A stretch of 64,000 bases of DNA from Promethearchaeota archaeon (GTDB lineage: Archaea; Asgardarchaeota; Thorarchaeia; Thorarchaeales; Thorarchaeaceae): contig WJIL01000132.1 of assembly GCA_014730275.1 (NCBI GenBank), positions 122,026-186,025 of the forward strand. Reading direction: 5' to 3'. Numbering within the stretch: the first letter of the stretch is position 1; the number at the start of each line of letters is the position of its first letter. Positions 25,915 to 46,552 of this stretch are shown one piece after another. A model generated the notes under the pieces. The model searched no databases. It had not been told where the DNA came from and saw only the letters and a list, made by a program, of their open reading frames with translations. Position numbers and translations under genes: made by a program.

Positions 25915-26505
25915 TTGTCCAAGACGGAACCTAATGGGACGATTGAAATGGGGTACTCCTTAGTGTCAAGTTCAGCCAAGGATTTCCACTACGTACGGAA
26001 AGTTGTGATGATTGGAGCTGGAGGTAGCGGAAAAACCGCTTTAGTCAACCGCTTTCTAACGAACCGATTTACCGACCAATATATAGTTACAATCGGAAGC
26101 CAATTTGCGGTCAAAGTTGTACCAGTAAATGACTCAAATGGCAATGAGAGAAGAGTGAAACTACTCATATGGGATCTGGCTGGTCAGAAGCGATTTGATT
26201 TTATCAGGCACAGTTACTATAGGGGAGCAAAAGGAGCGTTGCTCGTATTCGATACTACTCGGCAAAGTACGTTTCGAGTACTTGACAACTGGATTGCAGA
26301 AACCAAGAAAGCTTTGAACACCTCTATTCCTATTATTGTCTTAGCCAACAAAATTGACCTGGAGGATCAACGAGTTGTTGGAACTCATGAAGGCCGTGAG
26401 TATGTTGCTGAAAAAGGACTGGCTGGATATCTTGAGACTAGTGCCCTCTCCGGAGAGAATGTTGAGAGAGCTTTCGAAATGCTTGCTGAAAATGTGATAC
26501 CTTGA
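25915..26505 (+). CDS. Ras-superfamily small GTPase, Rab-like
   Basis: G1 GAGGSGKT, switch TIGSQF, G3 WDLAGQKRF, G4 LANKIDL, G5 ETSAL. Confidence 0.8.
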   Translation: MSKTEPNGTIEMGYSLVSSSAKDFHYVRKVVMIGAGGSGKTALVNRFLTNRFTDQYIVTIGSQFAVKVVPVNDSNGNERRVKLLIWDLAGQKRFDFIRHSYYRGAKGALLVFDTTRQSTFRVLDNWIAETKKALNTSIPIIVLANKIDLEDQRVVGTHEGREYVAEKGLAGYLETSALSGENVERAFEMLAENVIP

Positions 26506-31016: not shown

Positions 31017-31754
31017 TCACTTTCGCACTTTGATTATCACGATTAGAGAAATGACTGAGACTACTGCAATACCTATCAGCGCAAGAACCGAATTCGGAGA
31101 TGGCGGCGTTATCATTTCTAGGGAAAGACACAGATTGTAAGGCGTACCGAATGAGTAGCTGGTGTTTGCCCATACAAGAACTCCTGTCTCTAAATCGTAT
31201 GCTAGGTGCGTAATTTGTGGCTCACCATAGTCAGTAGGGTCTTGTTGATAGTCATAAGTGACACAATCGTACTCCGAGCCACGAGATTCAATAGTCTTCT
31301 TGGATAAATTCATTGTTCCGTTCATGTAATTTCCAGACACTCTTTCAGCAGATTCTCTGGCGGTCTCATTGAGATTCTCCATATTCGCATCCCCGATTGG
31401 CACAACCAATCCTGGGAAGAATGGCGTCACGCCCCAAACCCCTATTACTAGTTCTCTAGCAATAGTGGTATCGTTCGTATCTACTGAGAGATTCCCAATA
31501 TGCAATGTTCCTTCGATGACATCACTGATGTTGTCGATGCTGAATGTCATTGAAGAACCTTCTTCTGCGATCCAGGCTCCTTCTCCAGTCCAACCCCACT
31601 CAAATGGTACATCTGGGCTCTCTTCAATATTCCATGAAATAGTGGTCTTACCGTCAGGTGTGGGTTCAAGACTCGTATGGTATTCTGCGCTTGCCATCAG
31701 AGGTGAGAATACCAAGCTTGTTATCACTAGTGCAATTATTGTCTTATTGATCAT
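31017..31754 (-). CDS. secreted/surface protein with signal peptide and C-terminal TM anchor
   Basis: N-terminal IIALVITSLVFSPLMASA and C-terminal LALIGIAVVSVISLIVIIKVRK. Confidence 0.5.
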   Translation of the reverse strand: MINKTIIALVITSLVFSPLMASAEYHTSLEPTPDGKTTISWNIEESPDVPFEWGWTGEGAWIAEEGSSMTFSIDNISDVIEGTLHIGNLSVDTNDTTIARELVIGVWGVTPFFPGLVVPIGDANMENLNETARESAERVSGNYMNGTMNLSKKTIESRGSEYDCVTYDYQQDPTDYGEPQITHLAYDLETGVLVWANTSYSFGTPYNLCLSLEMITPPSPNSVLALIGIAVVSVISLIVIIKVRK

Positions 31755-32248
31755 TTTCTCTTTCTCCTGAGATAAAATATGGATATCAGAAGTATTCCGA
31801 TAACTGGTAGAATTGCCAACGCGATTAGGGTCGACGGGTCGTTACTACTCTGCGTTGGGGTCGAAAATGCAGGTGGAATTCGGTGCCAGACGACCGTATC
31901 GTTGTCATTGAGCTGGTGTCTGTTTGCAGCCACAGATCCCAACTCACTGTTAACCCAATATTGCCACCATAACCCTGATTCTGCATCGTTAGTCACACCT
32001 GCTATCGACGTTACAAAGGCTTGATTCCCGTACCAGTCGACATCGACGGATGTTACGTTTTCAGTTGCTTCGAGCACAGTTTGTCCTTCTACTTCAGAAT
32101 ACGATTGTTCTGTTCCGTTTCCAAACTCGATGGTCACTGTTATTCCACTGGCAGCCGGCACGTGATTAGATGCACTGCCATCCGCTGTAGTTGAAGGGGG
32201 AGTTACTATCACTAGGACTAAACAAATGACAAGTACCATCCGTTTCAT
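31751..32248 (-). CDS. secreted/surface protein with signal peptide and C-terminal TM anchor
   Basis: N-terminal MVLVICLVLVIV and C-terminal LIALAILPVIGILLISIFYLRRKRK. ATGA-type overlap with the downstream gene. Confidence 0.5.
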   Translation of the reverse strand: MKRMVLVICLVLVIVTPPSTTADGSASNHVPAASGITVTIEFGNGTEQSYSEVEGQTVLEATENVTSVDVDWYGNQAFVTSIAGVTNDAESGLWWQYWVNSELGSVAANRHQLNDNDTVVWHRIPPAFSTPTQSSNDPSTLIALAILPVIGILLISIFYLRRKRK

Positions 32249-32673
32249 GATAGCAATTCACCAAATTATAGGATATGTTATCCTACAACGATATTGACCA
32301 AAATATAAGACTTGCCATATTTCATATTTCAAATCAGGAATCCATTAGAGGGAATTGTGAATATCGGATTTACAATCAAGAACGAGCATAACATAGAACT
32401 GCCCGCTCTACTCTGAAAAATCAGGAACTTACTTGTTGATATGAACAACTTTTTCCATTATTCGTATAGTAGAGCCGCTCTATTTGCAACAGAAGGGCTT
32501 TGATTGTCTGGTGTTATTAGATATGACAATGGATTCCAAGAGATTGAGATAATGCGAAGTGATTATCGACAACCTTTTTATCGTAGCTCACGTTCGATAG
32601 CAACGTAGTTGACGTTTGGTACTAACGTAGGTTTAAACAGGCCAGCCGTTCGTACGTCCGAAGAGGGAAGAAA

Positions 32674-33813
32674 ATGCCTGTCGCCATGCTGTTGATTGAT
32701 TGGGATAGCAAAATAGGAGCAGTTCTCAAGGCCAAGGTGCCGGAGGATTTTGCGGAATACTATCAAGAAGATCTTAACACTGAAGCCATGCGAATTTTCA
32801 CGTCTCACGCAATGGGAGAAGCTACAGCTGGATTCTCTACGCTGACAGTTCGTATTGGCGGAGAAGAATACAATGTCGCTTCGTATTATACGGGTATTGT
32901 TCGTGAGGAAGAACAATACTGTATCTCGCTGTTACTTGGCCCTTCGGAAGATCCAAAGGTATACGAGGCAGCAATCACTTCGGTAGTATCTCCGTTGATG
33001 AATGCAGTTGTTTCAATGACTGATGCGGAACTGCAAGAAGAGCTTGAGAACACCTACCGCCGGATTATTCGCCTCGCAGGAATGGCTGATGAGTCAAGAT
33101 TGGCTCGTCTTTTTGCTGACGAGGTCTCACGGGCTGTATTCCCCAAACTCTGGAAGGGCGGCATCTCAAAGGAAGACCTTGAAGAATGGCTCAAGATGGT
33201 AACAGGCCTCCCAAGTGTAAGTGTCGATTCAATCCTTGCCCCGTTTGAGGAGCTAGGAATAGCCAAAGTCGAATGGGTTGATGAGATTGGCAGAACCTGT
33301 GTTTTCATGATTAAAGACTTAGAAGTTTTCCGGGCACCACCTCTACTGGCTATGGAAACTGCGTCTGAAGTACTCGATCCCGAACTTGCAGCTGAATACA
33401 AGACTGAAGTGCTTGAGTTTCTCACGGAATGGCAAAAGACGCCTGAAGACACAGTCGCTATAGCCGAAATCCTGTCGGATCCTGACTGTTATGACATATT
33501 GAGCATTCTACGGCAGCGACCGGTGAACATTCCGGAGCTTGAAGCAACCTTGGGAATCCCACCGAAGGAACTACGTCAAGCCATACAGACCCTGAAGAAG
33601 TACAGAGTCGTGTCCGAAAAGCGCCGCAAGGAACCGTCTGGAGAATATGATCGTTGGTTATTCCTACTCAACGATATCCGTGTACGACTATTCTTCCCAG
33701 AATATTTCCTGCAGACTCTAGTACAGGAATTGGAAAAAGATCCAGATGATACCCGGCAAATGGAACTTGTAGAGCAGCATTTGCGGCTACTCAGGGACAA
33801 TTTCCCCCGGTAA
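32674..33813 (+). CDS. hypothetical protein; N-terminal longin/roadblock-like pattern, C-terminal winged helix
   Basis: N-terminus LLIDWDSKIGAVLKAKVPEDF...NVASYYTGIVREEEQYCISLLLG has longin-like beta-alpha patterning. C-terminus PVNIPELEATLGIPPKELRQAIQTLKKYRVV. Confidence 0.35.
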   Translation: MPVAMLLIDWDSKIGAVLKAKVPEDFAEYYQEDLNTEAMRIFTSHAMGEATAGFSTLTVRIGGEEYNVASYYTGIVREEEQYCISLLLGPSEDPKVYEAAITSVVSPLMNAVVSMTDAELQEELENTYRRIIRLAGMADESRLARLFADEVSRAVFPKLWKGGISKEDLEEWLKMVTGLPSVSVDSILAPFEELGIAKVEWVDEIGRTCVFMIKDLEVFRAPPLLAMETASEVLDPELAAEYKTEVLEFLTEWQKTPEDTVAIAEILSDPDCYDILSILRQRPVNIPELEATLGIPPKELRQAIQTLKKYRVVSEKRRKEPSGEYDRWLFLLNDIRVRLFFPEYFLQTLVQELEKDPDDTRQMELVEQHLRLLRDNFPR

Positions 33814-34089
33814 TTTTTCTGTAGCCTCTCCACCGACCAGTAAAGTTCTTATTGACCCATGTGAAACTGTAGCTGTCTGAGGTACGTGGCTTTCCCCGTA
33901 CGAAGAAACCTGTTGCGAAACACGCACGGTCCCAAAATTTGCACAGGTTTTCTTGCATTGGTCCCCTTGCACAGTTGGGATATTACTCTCAGCTGCAACA
34001 TACCACACGTATCTTAGAAAATGGTCGCTCCACGATGGAAAAGGCCTGCGGGTACGAGACGGCTGTTTTCTGGTCGCTTGTACCCGGTT

Positions 34090-35004
34090 CTATTTATCGA
34101 TTTCAAAATAAATGCGTCTGTATTTCTCTTCATATTTGAATTTCTTCTTATAGAAGTTGATTGCAGGATCATTATTCACCTCAACAAAGAGGTTTGATTT
34201 CGACATCCCTTGTTTCTTGGCTTCGTGTAAAACCTTGGTAAGCAACACCGTTCCGTAGCCTTGGTTATGATACCCTTCAAGAAGTCCTATTCCAAAAATG
34301 AAAAAATTGTTTGGATTTGTTTCCCAGCCTGCACAATATCCAATAGGCTCGCCATTCTGGTATGTAAGAAGACCAATGAAGCCAGATTTCTGCTGGAATG
34401 CGTATAGTGTATCTCTAGACATTGGCTCGTAGGTCGGGGAATCTGCGAATATCGAATCCTGCAACTTCTTCCAGAGGTCTAAATGGTTTTCAGATTTCAT
34501 TTCGGTAATCTGTATTCTTGTGTCTTCTTTGTTCTCAAGAAGATCATCAGAGATTTCAGTTTCCATTCTTATTTTCGTGTCCACTCTCTCGAATCCTTTT
34601 TCCTTTGCCAGAGATATGATATATGGGCGATAGCTGGAAACTATTGTTTTGATTTTTGCATACTCTCGAGACATTGCTTCTTTCAGTATTTCATCAAAAA
34701 GTCTGGAGCCGATTCCTACGGCTCTACGACTAGGTCGCACATTGACCGAGATACCGATGGCCGATGCATCCATTTGATATATTCGAGCCATTCCGTCGAG
34801 ATGACCTTCAGGATTCCATGCAAGAACAAGATCTTTTTCTAAATCGAGAGGCGCGTACAGCTTTTCAAAGAATGCTGCATCTTTAGGTTGAAAGTCAGGG
34901 TTGTCATGCCCTTCGACTGCATTATAGAGATTTGCCATCTCTTCAGCGATTAGATTAAGGGATTTGTCTACGGGCCTTTGAATCATAAATCCGTCAGCAA
35001 CCAT
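34090..35004 (-). CDS. tandem GNAT N-acetyltransferase
   Basis: Two acetyl-CoA binding blocks (RRAVGIGSRLF; HNQGYGTVLLT). Confidence 0.8.
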   Translation of the reverse strand: MVADGFMIQRPVDKSLNLIAEEMANLYNAVEGHDNPDFQPKDAAFFEKLYAPLDLEKDLVLAWNPEGHLDGMARIYQMDASAIGISVNVRPSRRAVGIGSRLFDEILKEAMSREYAKIKTIVSSYRPYIISLAKEKGFERVDTKIRMETEISDDLLENKEDTRIQITEMKSENHLDLWKKLQDSIFADSPTYEPMSRDTLYAFQQKSGFIGLLTYQNGEPIGYCAGWETNPNNFFIFGIGLLEGYHNQGYGTVLLTKVLHEAKKQGMSKSNLFVEVNNDPAINFYKKKFKYEEKYRRIYFEIDK

Positions 35005-35148
35005 GGTGATTACCTCTGCCTATAATCTTACATAGGCAATATTAGCACCACCGAATAAGTTTACGATGGACAACGAAGATTTAATTTGGCCTTCAGAAAG
35101 ATGATATTGATGTCATGCAAAGGCAACTCTCTCAAGCGGTGATTAGGC

Positions 35149-36963
35149 TTGATTCATAACACCTATCTCGTAAAGAATCCGTCTGGCGAAATTATCGCCC
35201 ATTCTAGCTATTGGCCAGTAGAAGTGAGAGAGGAACAGGTAGACGAATTCATCGAGACTCGAGAAGAGATTCGCGAACAGTCTGGGAATGAACTAACTCC
35301 AGAACTGCCACTCAGTATTGGTAATGACAAATTTATGGCTACTGAAATAGAATCAGATTTGCTTCTCATATTTGCAACTGACGAATCAGAAGACGAAAGC
35401 AATATTCGCGATCGCTTGAATGAAGCCAAAAAGGTCCTTAGCGATAACTTGGAAAAAGGCATTGATTACATTGTCGAGAACTACCAAGATCTGATTGAGG
35501 ACGCAGTCACGACGCGACTCAAAATAGCTCTGGTGGGTGAAGGAGGTGTTGGAAAGACCACGACGCTCCACCTATTATTGGGTGATTCACCTCCGCTTCA
35601 ATATGTCCCAACAATCGCTCTTAATTTGGAGACGGTTGAGAACATTCGCTTCGGCAACTACAGCCTTGTTTTGTGGGACTTTGCCGGACAGGAGAGATTC
35701 AGGAAGCTATGGAAGTTCTATTTCCACGGTGCCGATGTAATCTTCCTTGTTTGTGATTCTACACTACGGAACGTAATCATCAGCAAGGATATCCTGAAGA
35801 TGATCCGTCGTGATGCTCCTAAGGTTCCTGTATTTGCTATAGCCAATAAACAGGACAAACCCAAGGCGATGAAACCTGAAGTTGTTCAGAAAATACTTGG
35901 TGTGCCTACATATCCAATGGTTGCAATAGACAAAGATCGCCGCGAGGAAATGCTGAGGCTTCTCATGAATGCTGCGGCCCAATACGTGGGTGTATCTGTG
36001 CCTGATTTACCACCCTCAGAAGTTCTTACCTTCGTAGATGCAGAACCCAGTGAAGTAATCAAAGAACAAGAAGAAGAAAAGACTAAGGCCGAAGAAGAAG
36101 AGGTTGAGGTGGTAGAGACGGTTCTTGTTGATGAGGAGGGACGAATCATTGATGAGGCTGAGGGAGATTACGAAGTTATCGAAGAGGTCGTCGAGGTTGT
36201 AGAGGACGAAGAACCGGCAGAAGAACCTGTCCCAGAAGTGTCCGCGGAATCTGAAGCAATTTCTGGAATCGAAGTTTCTGAGATGGGGGATGAAACCGTT
36301 GATGACCAAGAAGCTGTTTCGGTGCAAGATGGGCATTCCAGAACCGAGGAGCCCATTGCTTTCTCCTTGGAAACAACACAGGAAGTGGTTGATTCCGAAG
36401 ATTCGGAAACTGGTCATGTCGACATATCATGGAAATCTACGAGTGAAATAGTTGAAGCTGAAGAAACTGGAGAAACCTCCATTGTAGAAAAAGCCGAGTG
36501 GGACACTAGAGCAGTCGATTATCACCAGAAGACAAAGAAAGAAGCCATCGAGAACGGTCGTGAAATGGCAAAAGAGATTATTTCAGAAGCTCTGGATGCG
36601 GACGATCTTGTCGCCTCCGATTTAGAAAAAGCAAGCGGTGAGGAACTAGATGCGGCTCTCGAGGCCTTTTCCAGCGATGAAACATTGCCCACCGAAGAGG
36701 AAGAAGAAAAGACCACTGCCGAGCTTGAAGAAAACACGAAAGAAGAACTTGAAGAAATACTCGGAGACATTGAATGCGTTGTCAGATCTCCTAAATGTGA
36801 AAAGGAATCTGATAGCTCGAGTGAACCCGATAAAGAAGCCATCCGCGAGATGGAACAAATCTTGGGCGAGATGGATTCAAAGAAGAAATTACAGCATGAT
36901 ATTAATTCTGTAAGAAAACGATCCGATTCAGGCGATGATCATAGATCTGTAGAAGAGTCATAA
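35149..36963 (+). CDS. small GTPase fused to an N-terminal roadblock/longin-like domain and a ~330-aa poly-acidic C-terminal tail
   Basis: GTPase core: KIALVGEGGVGKTT, WDFAGQERF, IANKQD. The preceding ~130 aa have a roadblock-like pattern. The tail is Glu-rich low complexity. Confidence 0.75.
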   Translation: MIHNTYLVKNPSGEIIAHSSYWPVEVREEQVDEFIETREEIREQSGNELTPELPLSIGNDKFMATEIESDLLLIFATDESEDESNIRDRLNEAKKVLSDNLEKGIDYIVENYQDLIEDAVTTRLKIALVGEGGVGKTTTLHLLLGDSPPLQYVPTIALNLETVENIRFGNYSLVLWDFAGQERFRKLWKFYFHGADVIFLVCDSTLRNVIISKDILKMIRRDAPKVPVFAIANKQDKPKAMKPEVVQKILGVPTYPMVAIDKDRREEMLRLLMNAAAQYVGVSVPDLPPSEVLTFVDAEPSEVIKEQEEEKTKAEEEEVEVVETVLVDEEGRIIDEAEGDYEVIEEVVEVVEDEEPAEEPVPEVSAESEAISGIEVSEMGDETVDDQEAVSVQDGHSRTEEPIAFSLETTQEVVDSEDSETGHVDISWKSTSEIVEAEETGETSIVEKAEWDTRAVDYHQKTKKEAIENGREMAKEIISEALDADDLVASDLEKASGEELDAALEAFSSDETLPTEEEEEKTTAELEENTKEELEEILGDIECVVRSPKCEKESDSSSEPDKEAIREMEQILGEMDSKKKLQHDINSVRKRSDSGDDHRSVEES

Positions 36964-37072
36964 TTTGAAACTTTGAATTAGTTTGACGCATTTCTACTAA
37001 TTATTTTTATTCAAAAGTACGTTTATGTGCCTCTCGTAAGACTGATTTAGGAACCTCTCTGAATAAAGACAA

Positions 37073-37435
37073 GTGATTCCATTGAAAGTTGAGGACGTCG
37101 AACCCGATAGCGGCATACCTGAATTGACCGTCCGTGTTGTATCCGTAGCACCGGCTCGTATCATTAGAACTCGGAGCGGAAGGAAGACACAATTGACGGA
37201 GGTACTCGTGGGTGATGAAACTGGAACGGCTGTTTTCACACTATGGGGATTTGGAGCGGGTTCTGATGTCAAAGCTGGCCAAGTGCTTCGAATTACAGAC
37301 GGGTGGGCAAAGGAGTACAAAGGAAAGATTCAGCTCTCGCTGGGTAGGTCTGGAGAGTTCCAGACGTTGGAAGGCGATGCAGGCTTGCCAGAGCTTTCTG
37401 AAATCCTGAATAATACCAAGAACAATGAGAGTTGA
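37073..37435 (+). CDS. ssb: single-OB-fold ssDNA-binding protein (crenarchaeal SSB type)
   Basis: LTVRVVSVAPARIIRTRSGRKTQLTEVLVGDETGTAVFTLWG closely parallels Saccharolobus SSB ...VGDETGRVKLTLWG. Flexible acidic tail. Confidence 0.7.
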   Translation: MIPLKVEDVEPDSGIPELTVRVVSVAPARIIRTRSGRKTQLTEVLVGDETGTAVFTLWGFGAGSDVKAGQVLRITDGWAKEYKGKIQLSLGRSGEFQTLEGDAGLPELSEILNNTKNNES

Positions 37436-37955
37436 TTGGAAAACTAACCTGGAAATGAGCGAAATGACTCTATGCTATCTATCAGGTCCAATTATCCACA
37501 AAGAAAATCGAAAAGACAATTTCTACCAATATATTGTCGATTTTCTACGTGATGAAGGGATAGACGTCTTTGCTCCACAGTTTCTTGGTCCTTCTGAACC
37601 TATTGAGATTTTTCAAAGAGATACTCAAAAAGTGCGGGCGGCGGATTTTGTAATTGCTGAGGTTTCTAACGCATCTCACGGAGTCGGTATGGAACTCATG
37701 CTGTCGATAGAATTTGGAAAGCCTCTCCTACTATTCCGCCATGCCGAGGCTCAGCGGCTTTCGTACATGGTGTCTGGTGCTAGTGGCAAAGCTCTGTTCG
37801 AGTATGGAGATTTGGATGATATTACCCGTGTTTTGGAGAGACTGAATCTGCATAATCTCATAATCAAGCAGTGTAGCTCGTGCCCTTCTGACGTCGCAAG
37901 CACTAGAAACAATAAGATTCACTGTGTCCAATGTGGTGCAGATTTGTCCGAGTAG
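37425..37955 (+). CDS. nucleoside 2-deoxyribosyltransferase-like (Rossmann) protein with C-terminal zinc ribbon
   Basis: SNASHGVGMELMLSIEFGKPLL matches the NDT-like family core. C-terminal CSSCPSD...CVQCG. The true start is probably MSEMT/MTLCY, ~30-40 nt inside the ORF. Confidence 0.5.
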   Translation: MRVDWKTNLEMSEMTLCYLSGPIIHKENRKDNFYQYIVDFLRDEGIDVFAPQFLGPSEPIEIFQRDTQKVRAADFVIAEVSNASHGVGMELMLSIEFGKPLLLFRHAEAQRLSYMVSGASGKALFEYGDLDDITRVLERLNLHNLIIKQCSSCPSDVASTRNNKIHCVQCGADLSE

Positions 37956-37967
37956 GGTTGTGAGTGT

Positions 37968-38882
37968 TTGAAGGAAGAAGGTGATGTTGCACAAATTGTC
38001 CTTCTTCTAGTGTTATCTGTTTCCATGGTGTCAAGTGCTAGTATCCTCATTAGGTTCAGCGCTTCCCCCCCTCTCGCTATTGTTTTCTGGCGAACACTCT
38101 ACGGATCTATTCTCATGGCTGGTTTAGCTGCTTTGAAAGGTGAGACTGCTCGATATCAGAGTCCTCACATGAAGAAAAACTGGAAATGGCTCATTCTCAT
38201 CGGTATCGTATTGAGCCTGCATTTCTCCACTTGGTTTACTTCACTGTTCCTTACTACCGTTGCTGCCAGTGTTGTTCTTGTTGACTCGTCCCCTATTTTC
38301 ACAGCTGTGCTTTCTACCTCTGTTCTCGGCGAGAAGCTTGGGAAAAAATCCTGGATTGGCATAGTCATAGCTGTAGTCGGTGCAATCATGTTGACGTGGA
38401 ACGACCTCGAACTAATAGGCGGGGTGGCGCTTGTTGGCGATCTTTTAGCTTTGCTAGGTGCTGTTTTTCTCGCTCTTTATTTCATAGGCGGACGGAAATA
38501 TGCCAAAGGATTACCTGTTTCTGTCTATACTTCAGTGGTGTATTTCACAGCAGCTATTGCGACTCTTGGTTTCTGCCTTCTCACAGGTGTGAATGTCATG
38601 ATATTGGAACCGACAGAAGTAATCATCTTCTTGGCCCTTGCTATTTTCCCAACGGCTCTTGGCCATTCTGTAAATAACTATCTACTGACACTTGTTCCGG
38701 CCTACGTTGTATCAGCTGCAGTACTTGGTGAACCCATTGGGGCTACCATCCTTGCTATGATATTTTTGAATGAAATTCCCCATCCTACCACTGCCCTATG
38801 GTTCTGTACCATTCTCATTGGTGTTGCACTGGTTCTCTTCGAAGTTGCTACCAAGGGAAGCTCAGCAAAGGCAGAACTCTAG
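37968..38882 (+). CDS. EamA/DMT-family transporter
   Basis: Ten TM helices in two EamA repeats. Confidence 0.8.
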   Translation: MKEEGDVAQIVLLLVLSVSMVSSASILIRFSASPPLAIVFWRTLYGSILMAGLAALKGETARYQSPHMKKNWKWLILIGIVLSLHFSTWFTSLFLTTVAASVVLVDSSPIFTAVLSTSVLGEKLGKKSWIGIVIAVVGAIMLTWNDLELIGGVALVGDLLALLGAVFLALYFIGGRKYAKGLPVSVYTSVVYFTAAIATLGFCLLTGVNVMILEPTEVIIFLALAIFPTALGHSVNNYLLTLVPAYVVSAAVLGEPIGATILAMIFLNEIPHPTTALWFCTILIGVALVLFEVATKGSSAKAEL

Positions 38883-40333
38883 CCCTTGATGACGCCCATC
38901 GGGGTGAGTCTTAGAACCTTGGTTGCTATACCCAACTCGTCTGAGACCCGCACAACCTCATCTACATCCTTATATGCGCCCGGCGCTTCCTCTGCTATTA
39001 CCGCCCCTTTCTGAGCTTTAACAACGACACCTTCTCCGCCGAGTCTACGCTGCACATCTCTGCCATAGAAGTCGCGTTTCGCCTGGGTTCTGCTCATAAT
39101 CCGTCCTGCGCCGTGGGCTGTTGAACCGAAGCTGAGTTCCATACCTCGATGATCTCCTACGAGGACATAGGATGCAGTACCCATGGTTCCTGGAATGAGC
39201 ACTGGTTGACCGATTTCCTTGTATGCGGTCGGTGTCTCTGAATGATGCGGTGGAAATGCCCGAGTTGCACCTTTTCTGTGTACGACTACCTTGCGATTCT
39301 TACCGTCGATTTCATGCTCTTCGATTTTTGCCATGTTGTGTGCAACGTCATATATGAGCTGCATATCCATATCTTCAGGGGCTTCACCTAGGACTTTGGA
39401 GAAAGCTTCTCGAGTCCAATGCATCATTGCTTGTCTATTCGCCCAAGCATAGTTGGCCGCTGCAGCCATCGCGCCCAGATAGGCCTGTCCTTCTGGTGAG
39501 GTTACTGGTGCGCTGCAAAGTTGTCTATCTGGAACATCGATGTTGTATTTCTTCATGGCCCTGGTCATGTTCTTTATGTAGTCACTACAGACTTGGTGGC
39601 CGAATCCTCTTGAACCACTGTGGATCATGACGGTTACTTGCCCTTCTCGGGTTATACCCATAGCTTTAGCTGCTTTTTCATTGTAGATTTGGTCGACTTT
39701 TTGTATTTCGAGAAAGTGGTTGCCTGAACCGAGTGTTCCAACCTGGGGCTTGCCTCTGCCTTTCGCGTGATCTGAAACTTTGCTGGCATCAGCCATTTCG
39801 AGATTGCCATTAGCTTCTGTATGTTCAAGGTCACTTTCCCAACCAAAGCCATTTTCTACCGCCCACTTCGAACCACCTTCAAGAACATTGTCGATTTCCC
39901 TATCTGTATCTAAGCGGATCTTTCCTTTTCGGCCAACACCAGTGGGAACATCAGAATAGAGCCGATTGATGAGTGCATTGATTTTCGGACGAACGTCTTT
40001 TTCGTCCATATTTGTTCTCAGAACGCGGACACCACAGTTGATGTCATATCCAACGCCTCCTGGGGATACAACACCTTCCTCATAGTCAACTGCTGCCACT
40101 CCGCCAATGGGAAATCCATACCCTTGATGTCCGTCAGGTAACACCGTACTCTGCTTGTAGATTCCAGGGAGACAGGCAACATTTGTGGCTTGGTTAAGTG
40201 TTTTATCTCTACGAATCTGTTGGATTAGCTTGCTCGATGCGTAGATTCGTACTGGAACCCGCATGCAGTCTTGTGTACCCTTGGAAATTTCATAGGTGAG
40301 ATTACCGACTTTCTCCGCATTCAATGTGACCAA
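38879..40333 (-). CDS. rtcB: RNA-splicing ligase RtcB
   Basis: HQGYGFPIGGVAA, GSGNHFLEIQ, HGAGR. Confidence 0.9.
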   Translation of the reverse strand: MVTLNAEKVGNLTYEISKGTQDCMRVPVRIYASSKLIQQIRRDKTLNQATNVACLPGIYKQSTVLPDGHQGYGFPIGGVAAVDYEEGVVSPGGVGYDINCGVRVLRTNMDEKDVRPKINALINRLYSDVPTGVGRKGKIRLDTDREIDNVLEGGSKWAVENGFGWESDLEHTEANGNLEMADASKVSDHAKGRGKPQVGTLGSGNHFLEIQKVDQIYNEKAAKAMGITREGQVTVMIHSGSRGFGHQVCSDYIKNMTRAMKKYNIDVPDRQLCSAPVTSPEGQAYLGAMAAAANYAWANRQAMMHWTREAFSKVLGEAPEDMDMQLIYDVAHNMAKIEEHEIDGKNRKVVVHRKGATRAFPPHHSETPTAYKEIGQPVLIPGTMGTASYVLVGDHRGMELSFGSTAHGAGRIMSRTQAKRDFYGRDVQRRLGGEGVVVKAQKGAVIAEEAPGAYKDVDEVVRVSDELGIATKVLRLTPMGVIKG

Positions 40334-40565
40334 AACCTATTCAATCTAAAGCTCAGGTAAATCATGCTATAAGGCTTATGAAGCGTCATTTTTCGAGATA
40401 AAGCTCGTATACTTCTCAATGCCTTTTTTGCATTAAAAATTGAGGGTTCGGTTTAAATAATTCACCACGATAACTATGAAACAATATCTATCGGTTCATG
40501 TGATACCGCGTTTCTGGTTATCACTCAGTTTCTGAAGCGGCGGAATATATTAACTGAAATCAAAT

Positions 40566-40733
40566 CACTCTAGAAGATGGTTGAGCTTGTCGAAGAGCTC
40601 ATCGATACCTTCAAGTGCTTCAGTATCGACCTGAGGTGGAATGAATTTCCGCAACTCTAGGATTTCTGCAACTTCGGCATCATGAAACAGCCAGAATTCG
40701 TGCTTCAGGTTTTTCTTAACTTGCGCCATTCAG
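40566..40733 (-). CDS. unannotated small ORF (55 aa) MAQVKKNLKHEFWLFHDAEVAEILELRKFIPPQVDTEALEGIDELFDKLNHLLE
   Basis: Below the ORF-track size cut-off. Intact ATG..TGA in the 650-bp intergenic region between rtcB and the GTPase gene. Acidic, helical. Confidence 0.2.
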
Positions 40734-40979
40734 ATTTTCACTCCAAATGATATTCTATGTAAAAATACGTGTTTTGACGATATAACTGCTTTGTTAGTAG
40801 GTATGACGATTATCGAAATTGCCTTCGACAGAGCATTCATTTCCCCGGGATTTTTCGTCTTCGTATTAAGTAAGCGACGGCAAATCATTTAATATGTGAA
40901 ATCCGTTCCACTCAACTAACGGTGAACATCGTTCCATCTAACTTGGAACGAAATTTGCTTCACATATAGGTGCAAACTC

Positions 40980-41678
40980 ATGAAAATTGTCGTCACTGGA
41001 AGCCATTCCGCGGGGAAGAGCGAGATTATTCACAGTCTGACCAATGGTGCTTGCATCAACATTGAGCGTAAAGGTACCACGATAGCCATGGATCATGGAG
41101 TAGCCGAGCTTCCTGAATTAAACGTCTTCCTCTTTGGAACACCTGGTCTGCTACGGTTTCGGACAATGAGGAAGATTCTGAGTTCCGGAGCAGACGGAAT
41201 AATATTTGTGGTGGACAGCGTTGACCCAGAGGCTGATGCTCGAGCGAAGCTTTTCTTCAGAGAGATTGCTTTCTTTCTTCCTGGTGTTCCCTGTGTTGTA
41301 GCTGCGAATAAGCAGGACCTAGAAGAAGCTAGAAGAGTGGATGAGCTTCGAGAAAGCATGAAATTCTTGGCTGGACTTCCTGTTATTCCTTGTTCTGCCA
41401 AGACAGGTAAGAATGTCGAAAACACTCTGAGGACTTTGCTTTATTTGGCTATGATGCAATGGAGTGAGGTTTTCGCAAAATTCGCGGAGTATAGCGGTGC
41501 TGATGACGGACTACAAGGTCTCATGTCTGATTTGAATATTTCTCGTGAGCAAGCAGTTGGTCACCTTCGCAGATTCGAGCTCAGGAAGTTGCTAGAAGTA
41601 GATGTTGGTGACAGGCGGTTCTTTGTGAAGGATGCTGTTATGCCGTTGTTAGAGAACCCTGTACTTGTAATGGCTTAG
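40980..41678 (+). CDS. small GTPase, MglA/Arf-like
   Basis: KIVVTGSHSAGKSEIIHSL (P-loop), FGTPGLLRF, AANKQDL, CSAKTG. C-terminal ~60-aa extension. Confidence 0.75.
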   Translation: MKIVVTGSHSAGKSEIIHSLTNGACINIERKGTTIAMDHGVAELPELNVFLFGTPGLLRFRTMRKILSSGADGIIFVVDSVDPEADARAKLFFREIAFFLPGVPCVVAANKQDLEEARRVDELRESMKFLAGLPVIPCSAKTGKNVENTLRTLLYLAMMQWSEVFAKFAEYSGADDGLQGLMSDLNISREQAVGHLRRFELRKLLEVDVGDRRFFVKDAVMPLLENPVLVMA

Positions 41679-42691: not shown

Positions 42692-45600
42692 TTGCTTGAA
42701 GACAGGAGAATCCCCAGATTGCTCGATCGACAAAAGGCACCTCATTCATTGATTGCGATGATTCTTCTTTTGGGTACCCTTTTTCTTCCTTCGGCTTTTT
42801 CTCCTCAAACCTTGCCCGTAAGAGAGTCCAGGAATCCTGTTCAGTTCAAAATGGCGAACGGACAAGAACAGAATTACACAGCAATGCGTCGCTCCGTGTT
42901 CGTGTCCCCTGATTCAACTTCATACATTGACGAATTTTCTTACATGGCAGCCGTACCGACTAGTGTGTTCAGTCATGATGGAACGAAGTATGTATCCCCG
43001 GTGGTTCTTTCATCGAGTTCAGATTCAGAAGATTGGTTCATAGATGACTGGAAAGAGTATCTGTCTGTTGATGGTGGCCTAGAACAACTGGTGACAATCG
43101 GGGATTTTTCGATTCAGGAAAGCATGGCTTTTCGAGAGTCCTTTGGAACGGAGGTGTTTCCCCATATAGAAGGTGATTCATCAGCTGAAGTTGCGGCGCA
43201 ACTTGCGATATCAGACTGGGCTTCTTCAGATACAGTCGTCATTGGGATGGCAAATGATGATTTATCCACTCTCAACACAACATCTGGAAATTCAATTCAT
43301 TCATTGGATGGCTCAAGTCCTGCTTCCTACAACACATCTACAACAGTTCAACCCAGTAGTGGTGCATCCATCCCATTTACTCCACCAACCAATGCCGGGT
43401 GGCTATACGGTTCTTTCGATTGGAGTGGAACAAATTACTTCACGCATAAATTGATTGATCCAAATGGCAATACAGTCGATTATTCTCTTGCGCGTCAAAC
43501 TCGATATCAACGGAATCCAAGTTTCGTTGATGAATTAGTCCCACTGCATTTCTGGTTGCCTAAGACGCTAGAAGGCGAATATACGATGCAGGTTGAGATT
43601 GGATCCCCCATTTCTGCGCCTGTTTCCATGGATTGTGATATTACATACTATCCTGGGTTCTCGCAAGAAATCAATGTTCCAGAGAACGCTAAATGGCTCA
43701 ATTTGACGGCTAATTGGGACAATGCAGGGACTAACATCAACCTAGCTTTGATTGACCCTTCGGGAAAAATGGTTCAATGGGCACCTGCTGGGAGCTTGCT
43801 TTCGGGTGCTGGTCGCGATTCCATTGAAGTTCCTTATCCTAGTCCTGGTTCGTGGAAAGCGGTTGGGGCCTGGATGGATCCAAATGGCGAAACGAACAAT
43901 GTCGAATTGAGCTGGCAAATACAGCGAATGGAAACCAATCCGGACTCATATTTCGAGAGCAGTGCCAACGCTGCGGTACTGGCATCTCTTATGAATGCGC
44001 CGCTACTGTATACTGGCGAAAGAACTGTACCGACAGTTACACTGGATGCTGCTAATCGGTTAGGAGCTGAGGTAGTCATTCTTGTCGACCCTCATAACAT
44101 ACACTCAACTGAAGTAGAGTCCCAACTGGAAACCACAGGCATCCTGAGCGTTTTGGATAACTATCCTATGGTTACTGACTGGATTAAGACCCTCTCAGGA
44201 CAGAATGATGTTATTGCTACGGTACCTCAGGTTTCCAGCAATGAATTCTATCCCGCTGCTGCACTTTCCGGAGCGTTTCATGGAGCCCCAATCTTCTCAC
44301 TTTGCGGAGATGATAACCAAGTTACCACAATGGCCGAAAGCACATGGGCTCCATACAAAATAGGTCCTGAAATCGAAATCTATGTGACCAGTCGTTATTC
44401 TACAAGAACTGAGAATGGTTGGTATGACGACCGTATACCGAATATGTACACAATGCGCAAAAGTGTAGATACTTTCGAGAGTTTCCTAGATACGCGAGGT
44501 GCCTACAACTCATCAGCGGGCCAATCGACGGTATTACTGTCTCCAATCGATCTCATAAAACCGAGTTTTGACAGATCATTGCAAACCCATTTCTCACCCG
44601 GGAGAATTCCCGCAAGAAATGCTGAACTGGCTTCTGTTATGATTTCAAAAGCTATTCTCCACCGTTTCTTGTTCCGTACAGCAGAATCCTCAGATGATAC
44701 CCTGCTTTCGCTCTATGCATATACGGACGGAGCCAGCTATTTCGACAATTTCGGTAATGTTCGCAACATCTACCAAATTGAAGATACTCGTGACCCATTG
44801 CAGGACATGGGATTCAATACATTGATGCATGTTGGTGTAAACGAGGTCTTCAACAGCCTAGACACTCAGGTATCTCTATGGGCATTCAGTACCCATGGAA
44901 CTCTCACGAGATATCCCGCTGATCCTCCAGCCCGACCCAATGGTGTCGGATATTTCTCATTCCGCGATGTTGATAGTCCTTACGGATTTGAGGAAAGTGT
45001 ATCAAATCGGGAGAGTAGTGAAGATGCGGACCAACTTGTCAACCCTGTGGCCTTCACCGCAGAAAATGCTCACCACGTCATAAGAACTACCAACGATTTG
45101 TCAGGTGCAGTTGATAATATTGGATCACCTATTGTCTTTTTGACCGCTTGTTTGTTAGGCGGTTCCCAATTACCAATTCAACTGATGGAACACGGTGCTG
45201 TGGGTGTTATGGGTTCGCCGAGAACTGTCTATTTTCGAGCAGCGGGTCTGTTATCAACACTTGTCATAGAATCACTAGCAAATGGCACCGCTACTGGAGA
45301 AGCCCTTACATCTGCTCTTGATACCGTTTCTATGGACTATTCTGATCCGCTTGGATATGAGCCTGTAGACTATGCCAATCAATACATCTTGTTTGGAGAT
45401 CCCGAAATTAATCTCTATGAGCCAGATTCAACGCCTCGGATTACCTCCAGCGATCCTACTTCTAACACCTATGGAACTCATACGCCGGCTCGTGGTGTCG
45501 CTTCTATTGCGGCTCTAGGCAGTACAGATTACTTGCCCAGCAGCCTCGAAACTGCTGATATTGGGTACGATTTCTACTCTGATTCTAATAGCTCCGATTT

Positions 45601-46552
45601 CATGTGGTTGCTCAATCTACGCCGAGCTGTTCTGATAGAGCCTGCTTCTTTGTCGTTATTCAATGATTGGATGACCCAGTATGCTCAAGACTTCCAGGAA
45701 TATGTACAAGATGGCGGTTCACTAATCATCATGGGCATAAATACAAATGCAACTTGGCTACCGTGGACTTTCTCATTTTCTGATGGTTTTGCTAGCTCGC
45801 AGTTCTCCATCACTGAGGAACAGCATCCCCTGATAACCACACCTAACTCTATTGACGAGAACATCACCTGCCTAGGTGCTTTTACGAGCTACGGATCGAA
45901 TTTTACTCCACTTGCTGGTGTAGATGGTGCCCCTATCCTCCTTGCTGGCATATCCGGGTTCGGGAAAGTGGCTCTTACGACATTAGATCCTACTGGAAAC
46001 TCCAAAGATGCATTCATCGAAAATTCTGCGCTGTGGTATCGCGAACCGTCGTTGATGCTAACAGAAATAGCCCTATCTCAGGAAATCATTTGGGGCGGTG
46101 ACCGGGTCGACATCTCAATTTCTATTACTGATAGGAAAGGTAACCCTATTTCAGATGCTGATATTCAAGCTAGGATTGATTCTACCACCGTAGATGTAGG
46201 ACATGTAGGAGATGGACTTTACGAAATAACGCTAGGTGAAGAATGGACTCGTAATAGAACCGGCTACTATGATTTAGTCTTGACCGCTCGGAAACTTGGT
46301 TATGATACTCTTAGCCTTCATTTCGACGACTACCTCTACATTCGTCCTTCCCCTTGGCTACCAATCACCATTGTTGGAATCGCTGTTCTTGTGATATTGG
46401 CTGTTTGGTCTTACCGGAAACGTCGAAAGGGAGAAAAAATTGTTGATTTCGGTGGGAGTACCTATTCTCCGCCAAAAAATCATAAAACTAAGAAAGAAAA
46501 GGAAGAAGAGGACGAGGAATTTGACCCCAAGGAGTTCTTTGGGGTTGAGTAA
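42692..46552 (+). CDS. giant cell-surface protein (1286 aa) with signal peptide, C-terminal TM anchor and possible clan-CD cysteine peptidase domain
   Basis: N-terminal hydrophobic leader. C-terminal LPITIVGIAVLVILAVW then KRRKGEK and an acidic cytoplasmic tail. Internal LWAFSTHGT ... IVFLTACLLGG resembles the His/Cys dyad context of caspase-like (C11/C25) peptidases. Confidence 0.55.
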   Translation: MLEDRRIPRLLDRQKAPHSLIAMILLLGTLFLPSAFSPQTLPVRESRNPVQFKMANGQEQNYTAMRRSVFVSPDSTSYIDEFSYMAAVPTSVFSHDGTKYVSPVVLSSSSDSEDWFIDDWKEYLSVDGGLEQLVTIGDFSIQESMAFRESFGTEVFPHIEGDSSAEVAAQLAISDWASSDTVVIGMANDDLSTLNTTSGNSIHSLDGSSPASYNTSTTVQPSSGASIPFTPPTNAGWLYGSFDWSGTNYFTHKLIDPNGNTVDYSLARQTRYQRNPSFVDELVPLHFWLPKTLEGEYTMQVEIGSPISAPVSMDCDITYYPGFSQEINVPENAKWLNLTANWDNAGTNINLALIDPSGKMVQWAPAGSLLSGAGRDSIEVPYPSPGSWKAVGAWMDPNGETNNVELSWQIQRMETNPDSYFESSANAAVLASLMNAPLLYTGERTVPTVTLDAANRLGAEVVILVDPHNIHSTEVESQLETTGILSVLDNYPMVTDWIKTLSGQNDVIATVPQVSSNEFYPAAALSGAFHGAPIFSLCGDDNQVTTMAESTWAPYKIGPEIEIYVTSRYSTRTENGWYDDRIPNMYTMRKSVDTFESFLDTRGAYNSSAGQSTVLLSPIDLIKPSFDRSLQTHFSPGRIPARNAELASVMISKAILHRFLFRTAESSDDTLLSLYAYTDGASYFDNFGNVRNIYQIEDTRDPLQDMGFNTLMHVGVNEVFNSLDTQVSLWAFSTHGTLTRYPADPPARPNGVGYFSFRDVDSPYGFEESVSNRESSEDADQLVNPVAFTAENAHHVIRTTNDLSGAVDNIGSPIVFLTACLLGGSQLPIQLMEHGAVGVMGSPRTVYFRAAGLLSTLVIESLANGTATGEALTSALDTVSMDYSDPLGYEPVDYANQYILFGDPEINLYEPDSTPRITSSDPTSNTYGTHTPARGVASIAALGSTDYLPSSLETADIGYDFYSDSNSSDFMWLLNLRRAVLIEPASLSLFNDWMTQYAQDFQEYVQDGGSLIIMGINTNATWLPWTFSFSDGFASSQFSITEEQHPLITTPNSIDENITCLGAFTSYGSNFTPLAGVDGAPILLAGISGFGKVALTTLDPTGNSKDAFIENSALWYREPSLMLTEIALSQEIIWGGDRVDISISITDRKGNPISDADIQARIDSTTVDVGHVGDGLYEITLGEEWTRNRTGYYDLVLTARKLGYDTLSLHFDDYLYIRPSPWLPITIVGIAVLVILAVWSYRKRRKGEKIVDFGGSTYSPPKNHKTKKEKEEEDEEFDPKEFFGVE

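Follow-up and report, generated by a model that had tools for sequence, protein, structure and literature searches.

A Thorarchaeota longin–Arf-like GTPase fusion with a long acidic tail that bears conserved islands

Contig WJIL01000132.1 of a Promethearchaeota archaeon (GCA_014730275.1; Thorarchaeales) carries, within the 64,000-nucleotide stretch that we analyzed (positions 122,026 to 186,025; hereafter, the window), an open reading frame (ORF) in which an initial annotation had seen three parts: a roadblock/longin-like N-terminal domain, a small-GTPase core, and a very long Glu-rich tail. Is this a genuine protein, to which GTPases is it related, and what might so long a tail do? Analysis of the ORF (Table 1) and its homologues bore out that all three parts lie in a single frame, and we assign its identity and architecture (i.e., longin domain, Arf-like GTPase, and tail) with high confidence. 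The gene belongs to the vertically inherited core of Thorarchaeota (Asgard archaea) and encodes a multidomain small GTPase, whose tail consists of four conserved islands (M1-M4) set between acidic linkers that vary in both length and sequence.

The ORF begins with a TTG start codon. Since an in-frame TGA at 35140-35142, overlapping the Shine-Dalgarno-like hexamer, rules out a longer frame, this TTG is the first possible start, and homologues from other assemblies, whose cores are 60-89% identical to that of the window protein, start at the same position, with MIHNT(F/Y)L as common first residues. An exact-sequence look-up of the window protein matched no record, and its close homologues P0009 and P0023 served for context. 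The arrangement of N-terminal domain plus G domain recurred over the full query length (100%) in hundreds of proteins, drawn from independent NCBI, JGI, ENA, and Logan assemblies, and was present in about 75 species-representative genomes, showing that the fusion is genuine and not an assembly or frameshift artefact. The motifs quoted in the initial annotation were all located (GEGGVGKTT at aa 130-138, WDFAGQERF at aa 176-184, NKQD, and the tail string EEEKTKAEEEEVEVVETV at aa 308-325), whereas the sizes it had proposed were slightly too large: the N-terminal domain is present but comprises about 120 aa rather than ~130, and the tail about 318 aa rather than ~330.

The N-terminal domain was modeled with AlphaFold2 as aa 1-124, using 82 homologues as input, and the fold was predicted with confidence (predicted local distance difference test [pLDDT], 91.6; predicted TM-score [pTM], 0.87). 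DSSP placed its elements at β1 2-9, β2 14-20, α1 28-45, β3 55-57, β4 60-68, β5 71-78, α2 83-99, and α3 105-120, and a model of the full-length protein reproduced them. The domain therefore has the order ββ-α-βββ-αα, opening with a strand at residue 2, closing with two helices and lacking an N-terminal helix. This is the longin topology (β1-β2-α1-β3-β4-β5-α2-α3), found in aa 1-120 of both models, and not the roadblock/LC7 topology (α1-β1-β2-α2-β3-β4-β5(-α3)), which starts with a helix. Foldseek searches of the PDB returned 54 matches at E<=1e-3 (probability 1.00; E 2.5e-5 to 1e-3), the best of which were the longin domains of AP-1/2/3 mu and sigma and of COPI zeta/delta (query TM-score [TMq], 0.59-0.70), followed by MglB, the C-terminal domains of LAMTOR/Rag, VAMP7, and Mon1-Ccz1. 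Across the solved longin domains as a group (AP mu/sigma, COPI zeta/delta, VAMP7, and Mon1-Ccz1), E ranged from 2.5e-5 to 8e-4 and TMq from 0.57 to 0.70. Sequence models were silent here: aa 1-120 had no match in Pfam or NCBIfam at E<=1, Robl_LC7 being likewise absent in Pfam, and a word-indexed search with the domain alone gave zero scored candidates, which is a limit of that method. The Uversky charge-hydropathy test was not used as evidence in this work, as it scored even this confidently folded domain as disordered. Judging from the predicted structure, the domain is of longin type, a better label than roadblock, within the superfold that the two share. The description of the domain as roadblock/longin-like, for which the initial annotation had itself named an unrelated fold as the decisive objection, is thus upheld at superfold level by the model and the Foldseek matches.

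Only two residues separate the last longin helix from strand β1 of the G domain. To follow conservation in the latter, we used two alignments, A1 (13 sequences) and A2 (96 homologues). The P-loop GEGGVGKT was at least 90% conserved in A2, and G130-G133 and G135-T138 were invariant in A1; D177, G180, Q181, and N233-D236 were invariant among the 96 sequences, with T155 of switch I and A179 nearly so. All of the elements expected of the Ras superfamily are therefore in place, i.e., G1 GxxxxGK[ST], the switch I Thr, DxxG(Q), and NKxD, and since the Gln at the catalytic position is among the residues kept, the protein should, judging by these motifs, bind and hydrolyze GTP. Among 55 orthologues almost every position of the G domain was at least 90% conserved, switch regions included, which points to conserved partners.

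As regards its relatives, the G domain matched the Pfam models Arf (76.6 bits; cutoff, 22.3), Roc (71.2; cutoff, 27), and Ras (56.2; cutoff, 21.6) and the TIGR00231 small_GTP model (68.3; cutoff, 42.5), and its best solved relatives by sequence were yeast and human Arf1, Arf2, Arf6, and Arl1 (E 1e-18 to 1e-14). By structural comparison, Arf6, Arl1, Arf1, and the Rab protein Sec4 fit it about equally well. A likeness to the Rag and Roc families, as initially suggested, was not sustained. Gtr1_RagA scored 18.9 bits, below its 22-bit cutoff, and although Rag/Gtr with Ragulator (LAMTOR) likewise covalently join a small GTPase to a roadblock/longin member as a dimerization platform, Rag/Gtr proteins have the G domain first and the roadblock domain second, the reverse of the order seen here, where the longin domain precedes a G domain with NKQD as its G4 motif. 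As for Roc, Pfam found no COR domain after the G domain, the acidic tail coming next instead, and the Roc match appears to be generic small-GTPase similarity. On sequence grounds, then, we call the G domain Arf-like; it is neither Rag nor ROCO.

The tail had been described as poly-glutamate and as a possible repeat expansion, and neither description held. Over the 319 residues of aa 286-604, Glu accounts for 24.5% and Asp plus Glu for 33.6%, giving a net charge of -79, and the longest run of Glu is 5. Tandem Repeats Finder detected just three marginal arrays in the tail DNA, with <=3 copies and scores of 32-36, and no codon occurs more than 3 times in a row. The tail is an acidic, low-complexity, mostly disordered extension and is neither poly-glutamate nor a repeat array. 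We then surveyed 80 loci from archaeal and bacterial assemblies (one genome per species) and obtained 66 complete ORFs from Thorarchaeota, that of the window included. Their tails varied in length from 201 to 386 aa (median, 299; 316 aa for the window protein by the same measure). Asp plus Glu made up 26-43% of these tails. Compared with P0001, its closest relative at 89% identity, the window protein differed by a few residues in the first Glu run. The tail thus shows minor indel variation without expansion behavior.

A conservation profile computed over the 66 tails revealed where the constraint lies, and the same islands were visible on aligning close homologues. Directly after the G domain is a conserved helix with the consensus ASELLxFTDxATEEAIAE. 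Island M1 (family consensus, EVVEEVxVDExGHVIEDxDxEYEIIEEV) has short predicted strands at 326-327 and 333-334 with pLDDT of about 60-67, and might tentatively be read from the model as a beta-hairpin-like motif. It is followed by the linker with the lowest conservation, the most gaps, and the greatest length variation among orthologues; AlphaFold2 gave aa 341-450 a pLDDT of 31-47 and no secondary structure, with values under 50 at 342-447. Island M2 contains three predicted helices (448-481, 486-493, and 497-508; pLDDT 88-96 over aa 461-510), and its core, aa 470-512, has the consensus KMAKDxIFEALEADDIIxAEIExVSxEELDTALEAxxSDExxP. M3 is a short predicted helix and M4 is a second copy of this "ELExILG"-type helix. 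Most of the 66 tails hold recognizable M1, M2, and M3/M4-type motifs, with conservation falling on the hydrophobic and amphipathic positions of M1-M4, and the islands are under purifying selection.

Is this module found elsewhere? When 1.84 billion cluster representatives were searched with a profile of M2-M4, 27 proteins matched, and in every sequence read that reached far enough N-terminally the module lay at the C-terminus of the same longin-GTPase. The exceptions among the sequences read were P0143 and P0145, which are unrelated proteins; a third outlier, P0142, has 1783 aa and 17 matched stretches. P0143 (E 6.5e-12) bears a repeated ELKKILGK motif. P0145 (308 aa, Arg/Pro-rich; E 4.6e-4) has three tandem M2-like units plus a diverged fourth, and its unit LADALEATDDIDRVPNRVLSAGLQALGSDDYL resembles the M2 stretch ISEALDADDIISAEIDRVSxEELDxALEAFSSDE; given these tandem units, the M2 helix-turn-helix unit may exist outside the longin-GTPase family. 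Compared with PDB sequences, a profile of the tail module had no match with E under 0.48, Pfam offered for M2 just one sub-threshold match (DUF2188; aa 461-480, E 0.034), and a word-indexed search with the tail alone returned one fragment, again a limit of the method. Full-text searches of open-access literature brought up no account of longin-GTPases whose long acidic tail bears conserved motifs, which is no proof of novelty. The conserved tail module seems to be undescribed so far, the longin-Arf-like fusion itself being already known.

Homologues and loci were labeled Thorarchaeota almost throughout, the remaining names being Promethearchaeota and Lokiarchaeota. Clustering of the core region of the 96 homologues gave three groups, all with the N-terminal domain: a tail-bearing clade, 60-89% identical to the query; a group whose C-terminal extension is only 11-29 aa, 46-54% identical to the query; and a small clade without an extension. 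Tail-less proteins are 305-316 aa long, the paralogue of about 310 aa being 51-53% identical, and since tail-bearing and tail-less genes co-occur in the same metagenome-assembled genomes (MAGs; Dive96_bin4.146, LCG1B.475, LCG1B.62, CSMAG_407, and binchicken_co129_606), they are paralogues, and the tail was added in one clade and has been kept there.

How might these parts work together? The explanation that we favor, with moderate confidence, is a Thorarchaeota GTP switch in which a longin platform is built in and a flexible tether bears C-terminal helices. That the tail acts by a tether-plus-motif mechanism is a more tentative proposal, which we hold to be a real possibility somewhat short of probable, and which we infer by analogy with MglB-MglA, Ragulator/Rag, SRX-SRbeta, and the longin SNAREs. 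According to this mechanism, the longin domain would serve as a platform for dimerization, for contact with the switch face of a G domain (its own or that of a partner), or for both, and would thereby link assembly to nucleotide state. The acidic stretch would be a flexible, self-repelling spacer and not a functional polyanion, and would either present the M2-M4 helical module to a partner or allow this module to pack against the longin or G domain as an autoinhibitor, such that M2-M4, and perhaps the M1 hairpin too, would form the tail's functional ends. The pattern of islands and variable linkers is compatible with a role in tethering. A further step, that the M1 hairpin, three-helix M2 module, and M3/M4 helices make up an unrecognized, Thorarchaeota-specific interaction or autoregulatory module linking the Arf-like switch to a partner or to its own longin domain, is a doubtful one, and we would sooner expect it to fail than to hold.

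The analogies are instructive in both what they share and where they end. In MglA-MglB and SRX-SRbeta, the cycle of the Ras or Arf-like GTPase is controlled by a roadblock or longin domain bound to its switch face, and MglA uses an intrinsic Arg. MglA-MglB and SRalpha SRX-SRbeta resemble the window protein in pairing a roadblock/longin member with a Ras or Arf-like GTPase, and the fold of MglB strongly matches that of the N-terminal domain (TMq 0.58-0.68); however, they are separate polypeptides, whereas here the two domains are fused by the two-residue linker. Eukaryotic AP and COPI complexes are Arf1 effectors, and the N-terminal domains of AP-1/2/3 sigma/mu and COPI zeta/delta were the best structural matches (E 2.5e-5 to 3e-4, TMq up to 0.70, 11-21% identity). 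This similarity is at fold level only, as there was no sequence-model match and the window protein has no other adaptor domains. A comparison for the tail is offered by the C-terminus of the archaeal and eukaryotic ribosomal P-stalk, a flexible acidic tail with a short, hydrophobic, partner-recruiting helix at its end. The window protein similarly has a long, acidic, flexible region followed by short amphipathic helices of the L-x-x-[IL]-[LF]-G type (M3, M4), although here the motifs lie internally and in duplicate on a protein that is a GTPase in its own right, and no homology was detected.

Three observations weigh against the favored explanation. First, among the 55 orthologues there is no invariant Arg in the longin domain; position 9 is Arg in 42/55 and Lys in the window protein. 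An Arg-finger GTPase-activating (GAP) role is therefore not supported for the window copy, and we rejected an Arg-finger GAP longin of the FLCN/NPRL2/SMCR8 type (PMC12290439) on the same grounds. Second, the high pLDDT of M2 rests on the ~20-25 tail-bearing sequences in the alignment. Third, since all of the nearby genes are conserved, synteny provides no specific functional link.

The tail could instead be an intramolecular autoinhibitor, with M2-M4 or the M1 hairpin folding onto the longin groove or the basic switch face and being released by nucleotide state, in the manner of the SNARE motif that folds back on the longin domain in Ykt6 and VAMP7. This is consistent with a net charge of +7 on the G domain compared to the strongly acidic tail, with the pLDDT of 80-96 reached by M2 and M4 within an otherwise disordered region (often a sign of packing), and with the presence of a VAMP7 longin-peptide complex among the Foldseek matches (rank 27), while the invariant switch regions are compatible with a conserved cis-ligand. 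The tail-less paralogue, however, functions without the module, and the autoinhibitor overlaps with the favored explanation and does not exclude it. As a separate account we consider it unlikely.

Acidic tails often regulate SSB-like proteins, and the tail might be functional as a polyanion in its own right, through cation binding or polyanionic tethering, as the initial annotation had proposed, or through nucleic-acid mimicry or charge repulsion, the islands being secondary. Its charge of -79 over 319 residues and Asp plus Glu content of 33.6% are what such a role would call for, acidity is kept in all of the orthologues (fraction of Asp plus Glu, 0.26-0.43), and an OB-fold SSB-like protein is encoded immediately downstream in 72/76 loci. 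That gene lies in an all-syntenic block, however, making adjacency weak evidence; in addition, the Pfam scan turned up neither an EF-hand nor any other motif for Ca binding, and where the tail is most acidic its sequence is least conserved and its length varies most, conservation sitting instead on the hydrophobic and amphipathic positions of M1-M4. We therefore regard a polyanion function as improbable.

A third possibility concerns the G domain and not the tail, namely that it belongs to the Arf family proper (ArfR/AArf) and is a direct relative of eukaryotic Arf, with the longin domain replacing the N-terminal amphipathic helix. Arf is indeed the best Pfam model and Arf1/2/6 are the best solved relatives, segments of the types ANKQDxPxAM and RxLWxxYF align to Arf1 (NKQD falling on its ANKQDLP segment), and some AArfs have longin domains at their N-termini (Zhu et al., 2025; PMC11914678). 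Yet the residues that Zhu et al. gave as Arf signatures, Leu-Asp at G1 positions 2-3 (GLDxxGKT) and Gly at G3 position 3 (DxGGQ), are absent (PMC11914678): the window protein and the family consensus have GEGGVGKT, and DFAGQ has Ala as its third residue. Nor does an Arf-type N-terminal amphipathic helix occur, as the 120-aa longin domain precedes strand β1 of the G domain; the last longin helix (aa 105-120) is predicted to occupy the place of the Arf helix, yet is part of the longin fold. Moreover, in PDB sequence comparisons Arf1/2 scored 70 bits and GerdArfR1 (8oum/8oun) 54-57, i.e., below eukaryotic Arf and about equal to Rab18 (53). AArf/ArfR proteins have been reported mainly from Heimdall-group orders and Lokiarchaeales, with AArfs described as widespread in Gerd-, Heimdall-, and Hodarchaeales and not in Thorarchaeota (PMC11914678), and the older "Arf-like" (ArfL) group has been reported not to be directly related to eukaryotic Arf (bioRxiv 10.1101/2024.02.28.582541; PMC11914678). 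A direct relationship to eukaryotic Arf is thus quite improbable.

Finally, that the long ORF is an artefact, either a frameshift or misassembly fusion or a low-complexity read-through past a ~300-aa GTPase, is effectively refuted: although a tail-less paralogue of 305-316 aa exists and a few MAGs carry frameshifts in the gene (the N-terminal domain is split in L002/L028 [P0023], the pieces in L002 being a 56-aa and a 516-aa ORF; the tail of L062 [P0014] is in another frame and Lys/Arg/Ser-rich; and the ORFs of L007 [P0002] and L073 are truncated), the 66 complete ORFs from independent assemblies maintain one frame through a tail of 201-386 aa with the same ordered motifs, and the tail-less proteins form a separate clade (46-54% identity) within the same genomes. 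The frameshifts in L062, L007, L073, and L002/L028 are probably assembly errors in purine-rich, low-complexity DNA, pseudogenization being possible. The ORFs on the opposite strand across the tail were dismissed from the outset as low-complexity artefacts, and rightly so. They are Ser/Phe/Leu-rich translations of antisense GAR-rich DNA, the three that were tested (87, 133, and 106 aa) had no Pfam match, and the sense frame is protein-conserved in dozens of genomes.

The fusion had also been called rare, which the literature contradicts. In Lokiarchaeum, 41 longin-like domains were found, five of them fused to Arf-like GTPases, according to the summary of Klinger et al. (2016) given in PMC4917890; Liu et al. 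included longin-GTPase fusions among the multidomain Asgard signature proteins (bioRxiv 10.1101/2020.10.19.343400); and Tran et al. (2024) reported that 26/74 small GTPases of Prometheoarchaeum MKD1 are combined with roadblock or longin domains, including a Rag-like/Arf-like class with L-G, G-R, L-G-R, and R-G architectures (PMC10933270). The longin-Arf-like fusion is therefore a common Asgard design, known since 2016. The window protein shares two features of the longin-fused "Arf-like" class, Asgard lineage and a longin domain followed by a G domain for which Arf is the best model. Like the Lokiarchaeum proteins, the L-G proteins of MKD1, and some AArfs, it has the longin domain directly before the Arf-like G domain and neither a lipid-anchor signal nor an N-terminal amphipathic helix. 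The Thorarchaeota orthologue group differs from the longin-fused proteins of the published, Loki/Heimdall-centered studies in its 200-390 aa acidic tail with four islands. We also considered the Arco/Dip divisome-positioning GTPase and rejected it, as ArcoA has an N-terminal amphipathic helix and a SepF-like neighbor and has been reported, among Asgard archaea, in Jordi- and Heimdallarchaeia (bioRxiv 10.64898/2026.07.23.738820; PMC13228585); no SepF-like domain was found among the scanned neighbor genes of the longin-GTPase.

Table 1. Features of the longin-GTPase gene, in window coordinates.
Feature	Position	Strand	Basis or remark
Shine-Dalgarno-like hexamer GGTGAT	35138..35143	+	Read from sequence; 5 nt 5' of TTG start
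Whole gene: longin + Arf-like GTPase + acidic tail	35149..36963	+	ORF list; 604 aa plus stop
Longin-type domain, aa 1-120	35149..35508	+	AlphaFold2, Foldseek
Small GTPase (G) domain, aa 123-285	35515..36003	+	Pfam, TIGR00231, solved relatives
G1 / P-loop GEGGVGKT, aa 130-137	35536..35559	+	Read from sequence
G3 / switch II DFAGQ, aa 177-181, with catalytic-position Gln181	35677..35691	+	Read from sequence, alignment
G4 NKQD, aa 233-236, guanine-specificity motif	35845..35856	+	Alignment
Acidic C-terminal extension, aa 286-604	36004..36960	+	Composition
Island M1, aa 317-350: EVEVVETVLVDEEGRIIDEAEGDYEVIEEVVEV	36097..36198	+	Profile of 66 tails, alignment A1
Variable acidic linker, aa 351-447	36199..36489	+	pLDDT 31-47, without secondary structure
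Island M2, aa 448-512, core MAKEIISEALDADDLVASDLEKASGEELDAALEAFSSDETLP	36490..36684	+	AlphaFold2, profile of 66 tails
Island M3, aa 529-540: NTKEELEEILGD	36733..36768	+	Consensus ExLxELExILGxLD; helix 523-538, pLDDT 62-78
Island M4, aa 560-575: PDKEAIREMEQILGEM	36826..36873	+	Consensus DxxxLxELDxxL; helix 562-589, pLDDT 70-89
Antisense ORFs over the tail, 87, 133, 62, 84, 106, and 70 aa	35886..36858	-	Not genes

Gene order around the longin-GTPase is conserved in 59-72/76 loci and, in the window (31017-41678), runs as a 245-aa ORF, DUF4430, a 379-aa protein, a GNAT gene, the longin-GTPase, an OB-fold single-stranded DNA-binding (SSB)-like gene, a nucleoside 2-deoxyribosyltransferase (NDT)-like gene, EamA, and RtcB, with a 232-aa GTPase further on that is syntenic in 45/76 loci. 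The longin-GTPase is thus a stable chromosomal core gene. Since conservation extends to all genes within 6 kb to each side, among them housekeeping genes, we rejected synteny as a guide to its partners. The GNAT gene (34090-35004, - strand) occurs in just 10/76 loci and has the look of a variable insertion. This gene and the GTPase gene diverge from 144 nt of intergenic DNA, in which there is a near-palindrome, CCTATAATCTTACATAGG, at 35019-35036, and an A/T-rich box, GATTTAATTTGG (35079-35090), lies ~60 nt 5' of the TTG start and could be an archaeal TATA element.

Two genes upstream, on the same strand, the 379-aa protein (32674-33813, +) is 82-97% identical across 64 Thorarchaeota loci and hence more conserved than RtcB (58-95%) or the GTPase core. 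Its only family match is a weak C-terminal winged helix (TFIIE_alpha, 24 bits), and searches of the PDB gave just weak ArsR/SmtB winged-helix matches. A ββ-α-βββ-α pattern can be made out by eye at its N-terminus; a shared longin domain found no support, as hhalign against the profile of the N-terminal domain of the GTPase gave a probability of 0.6%. Downstream (37073-37955, +), the OB-fold SSB-like gene (120 aa) overlaps the NDT-like gene by 11 nt and EamA follows 13 nt later, in what looks like an operon beginning 109 nt past the GTPase stop codon; the NDT-like protein has a CxxC...CxxC zinc-ribbon-like segment at its C-terminus. The window holds two more small GTPases, one of 196 aa (25915-26505, +) and the 232-aa protein mentioned above (40980-41678, +), which matches Ras, Arf, SRPRB, and GTP_EFTU and is followed by a 288-aa tetratricopeptide repeat (TPR) protein. 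In a 1286-aa ORF further still (42692-46552, +), a weak Peptidase_C25 (gingipain-like) match at aa 613-908 is the sole recognizable region.

Small GTPases and longin/roadblock proteins are very numerous in Asgard archaea. They are thought to foreshadow the regulators of eukaryotic membrane traffic, and a partner or function has been assigned to almost none of them. The present gene leaves that picture unchanged, since the fusion was already known and signatures by which the G domain could be linked to direct ancestors of eukaryotic Arf are missing. What it adds is an orthologue group in about 70 Thorarchaeota species with a near-invariant G domain, a tail-less paralogue, and tail motifs that could be used directly as baits for partners; the conserved motifs and the paralogue make the protein experimentally tractable and a practical entry point. 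If the proposed role of the tail is true, this would be a prokaryotic small GTPase with a "hypervariable-region-like" tether, targeted by a protein-binding helix instead of a lipid anchor.

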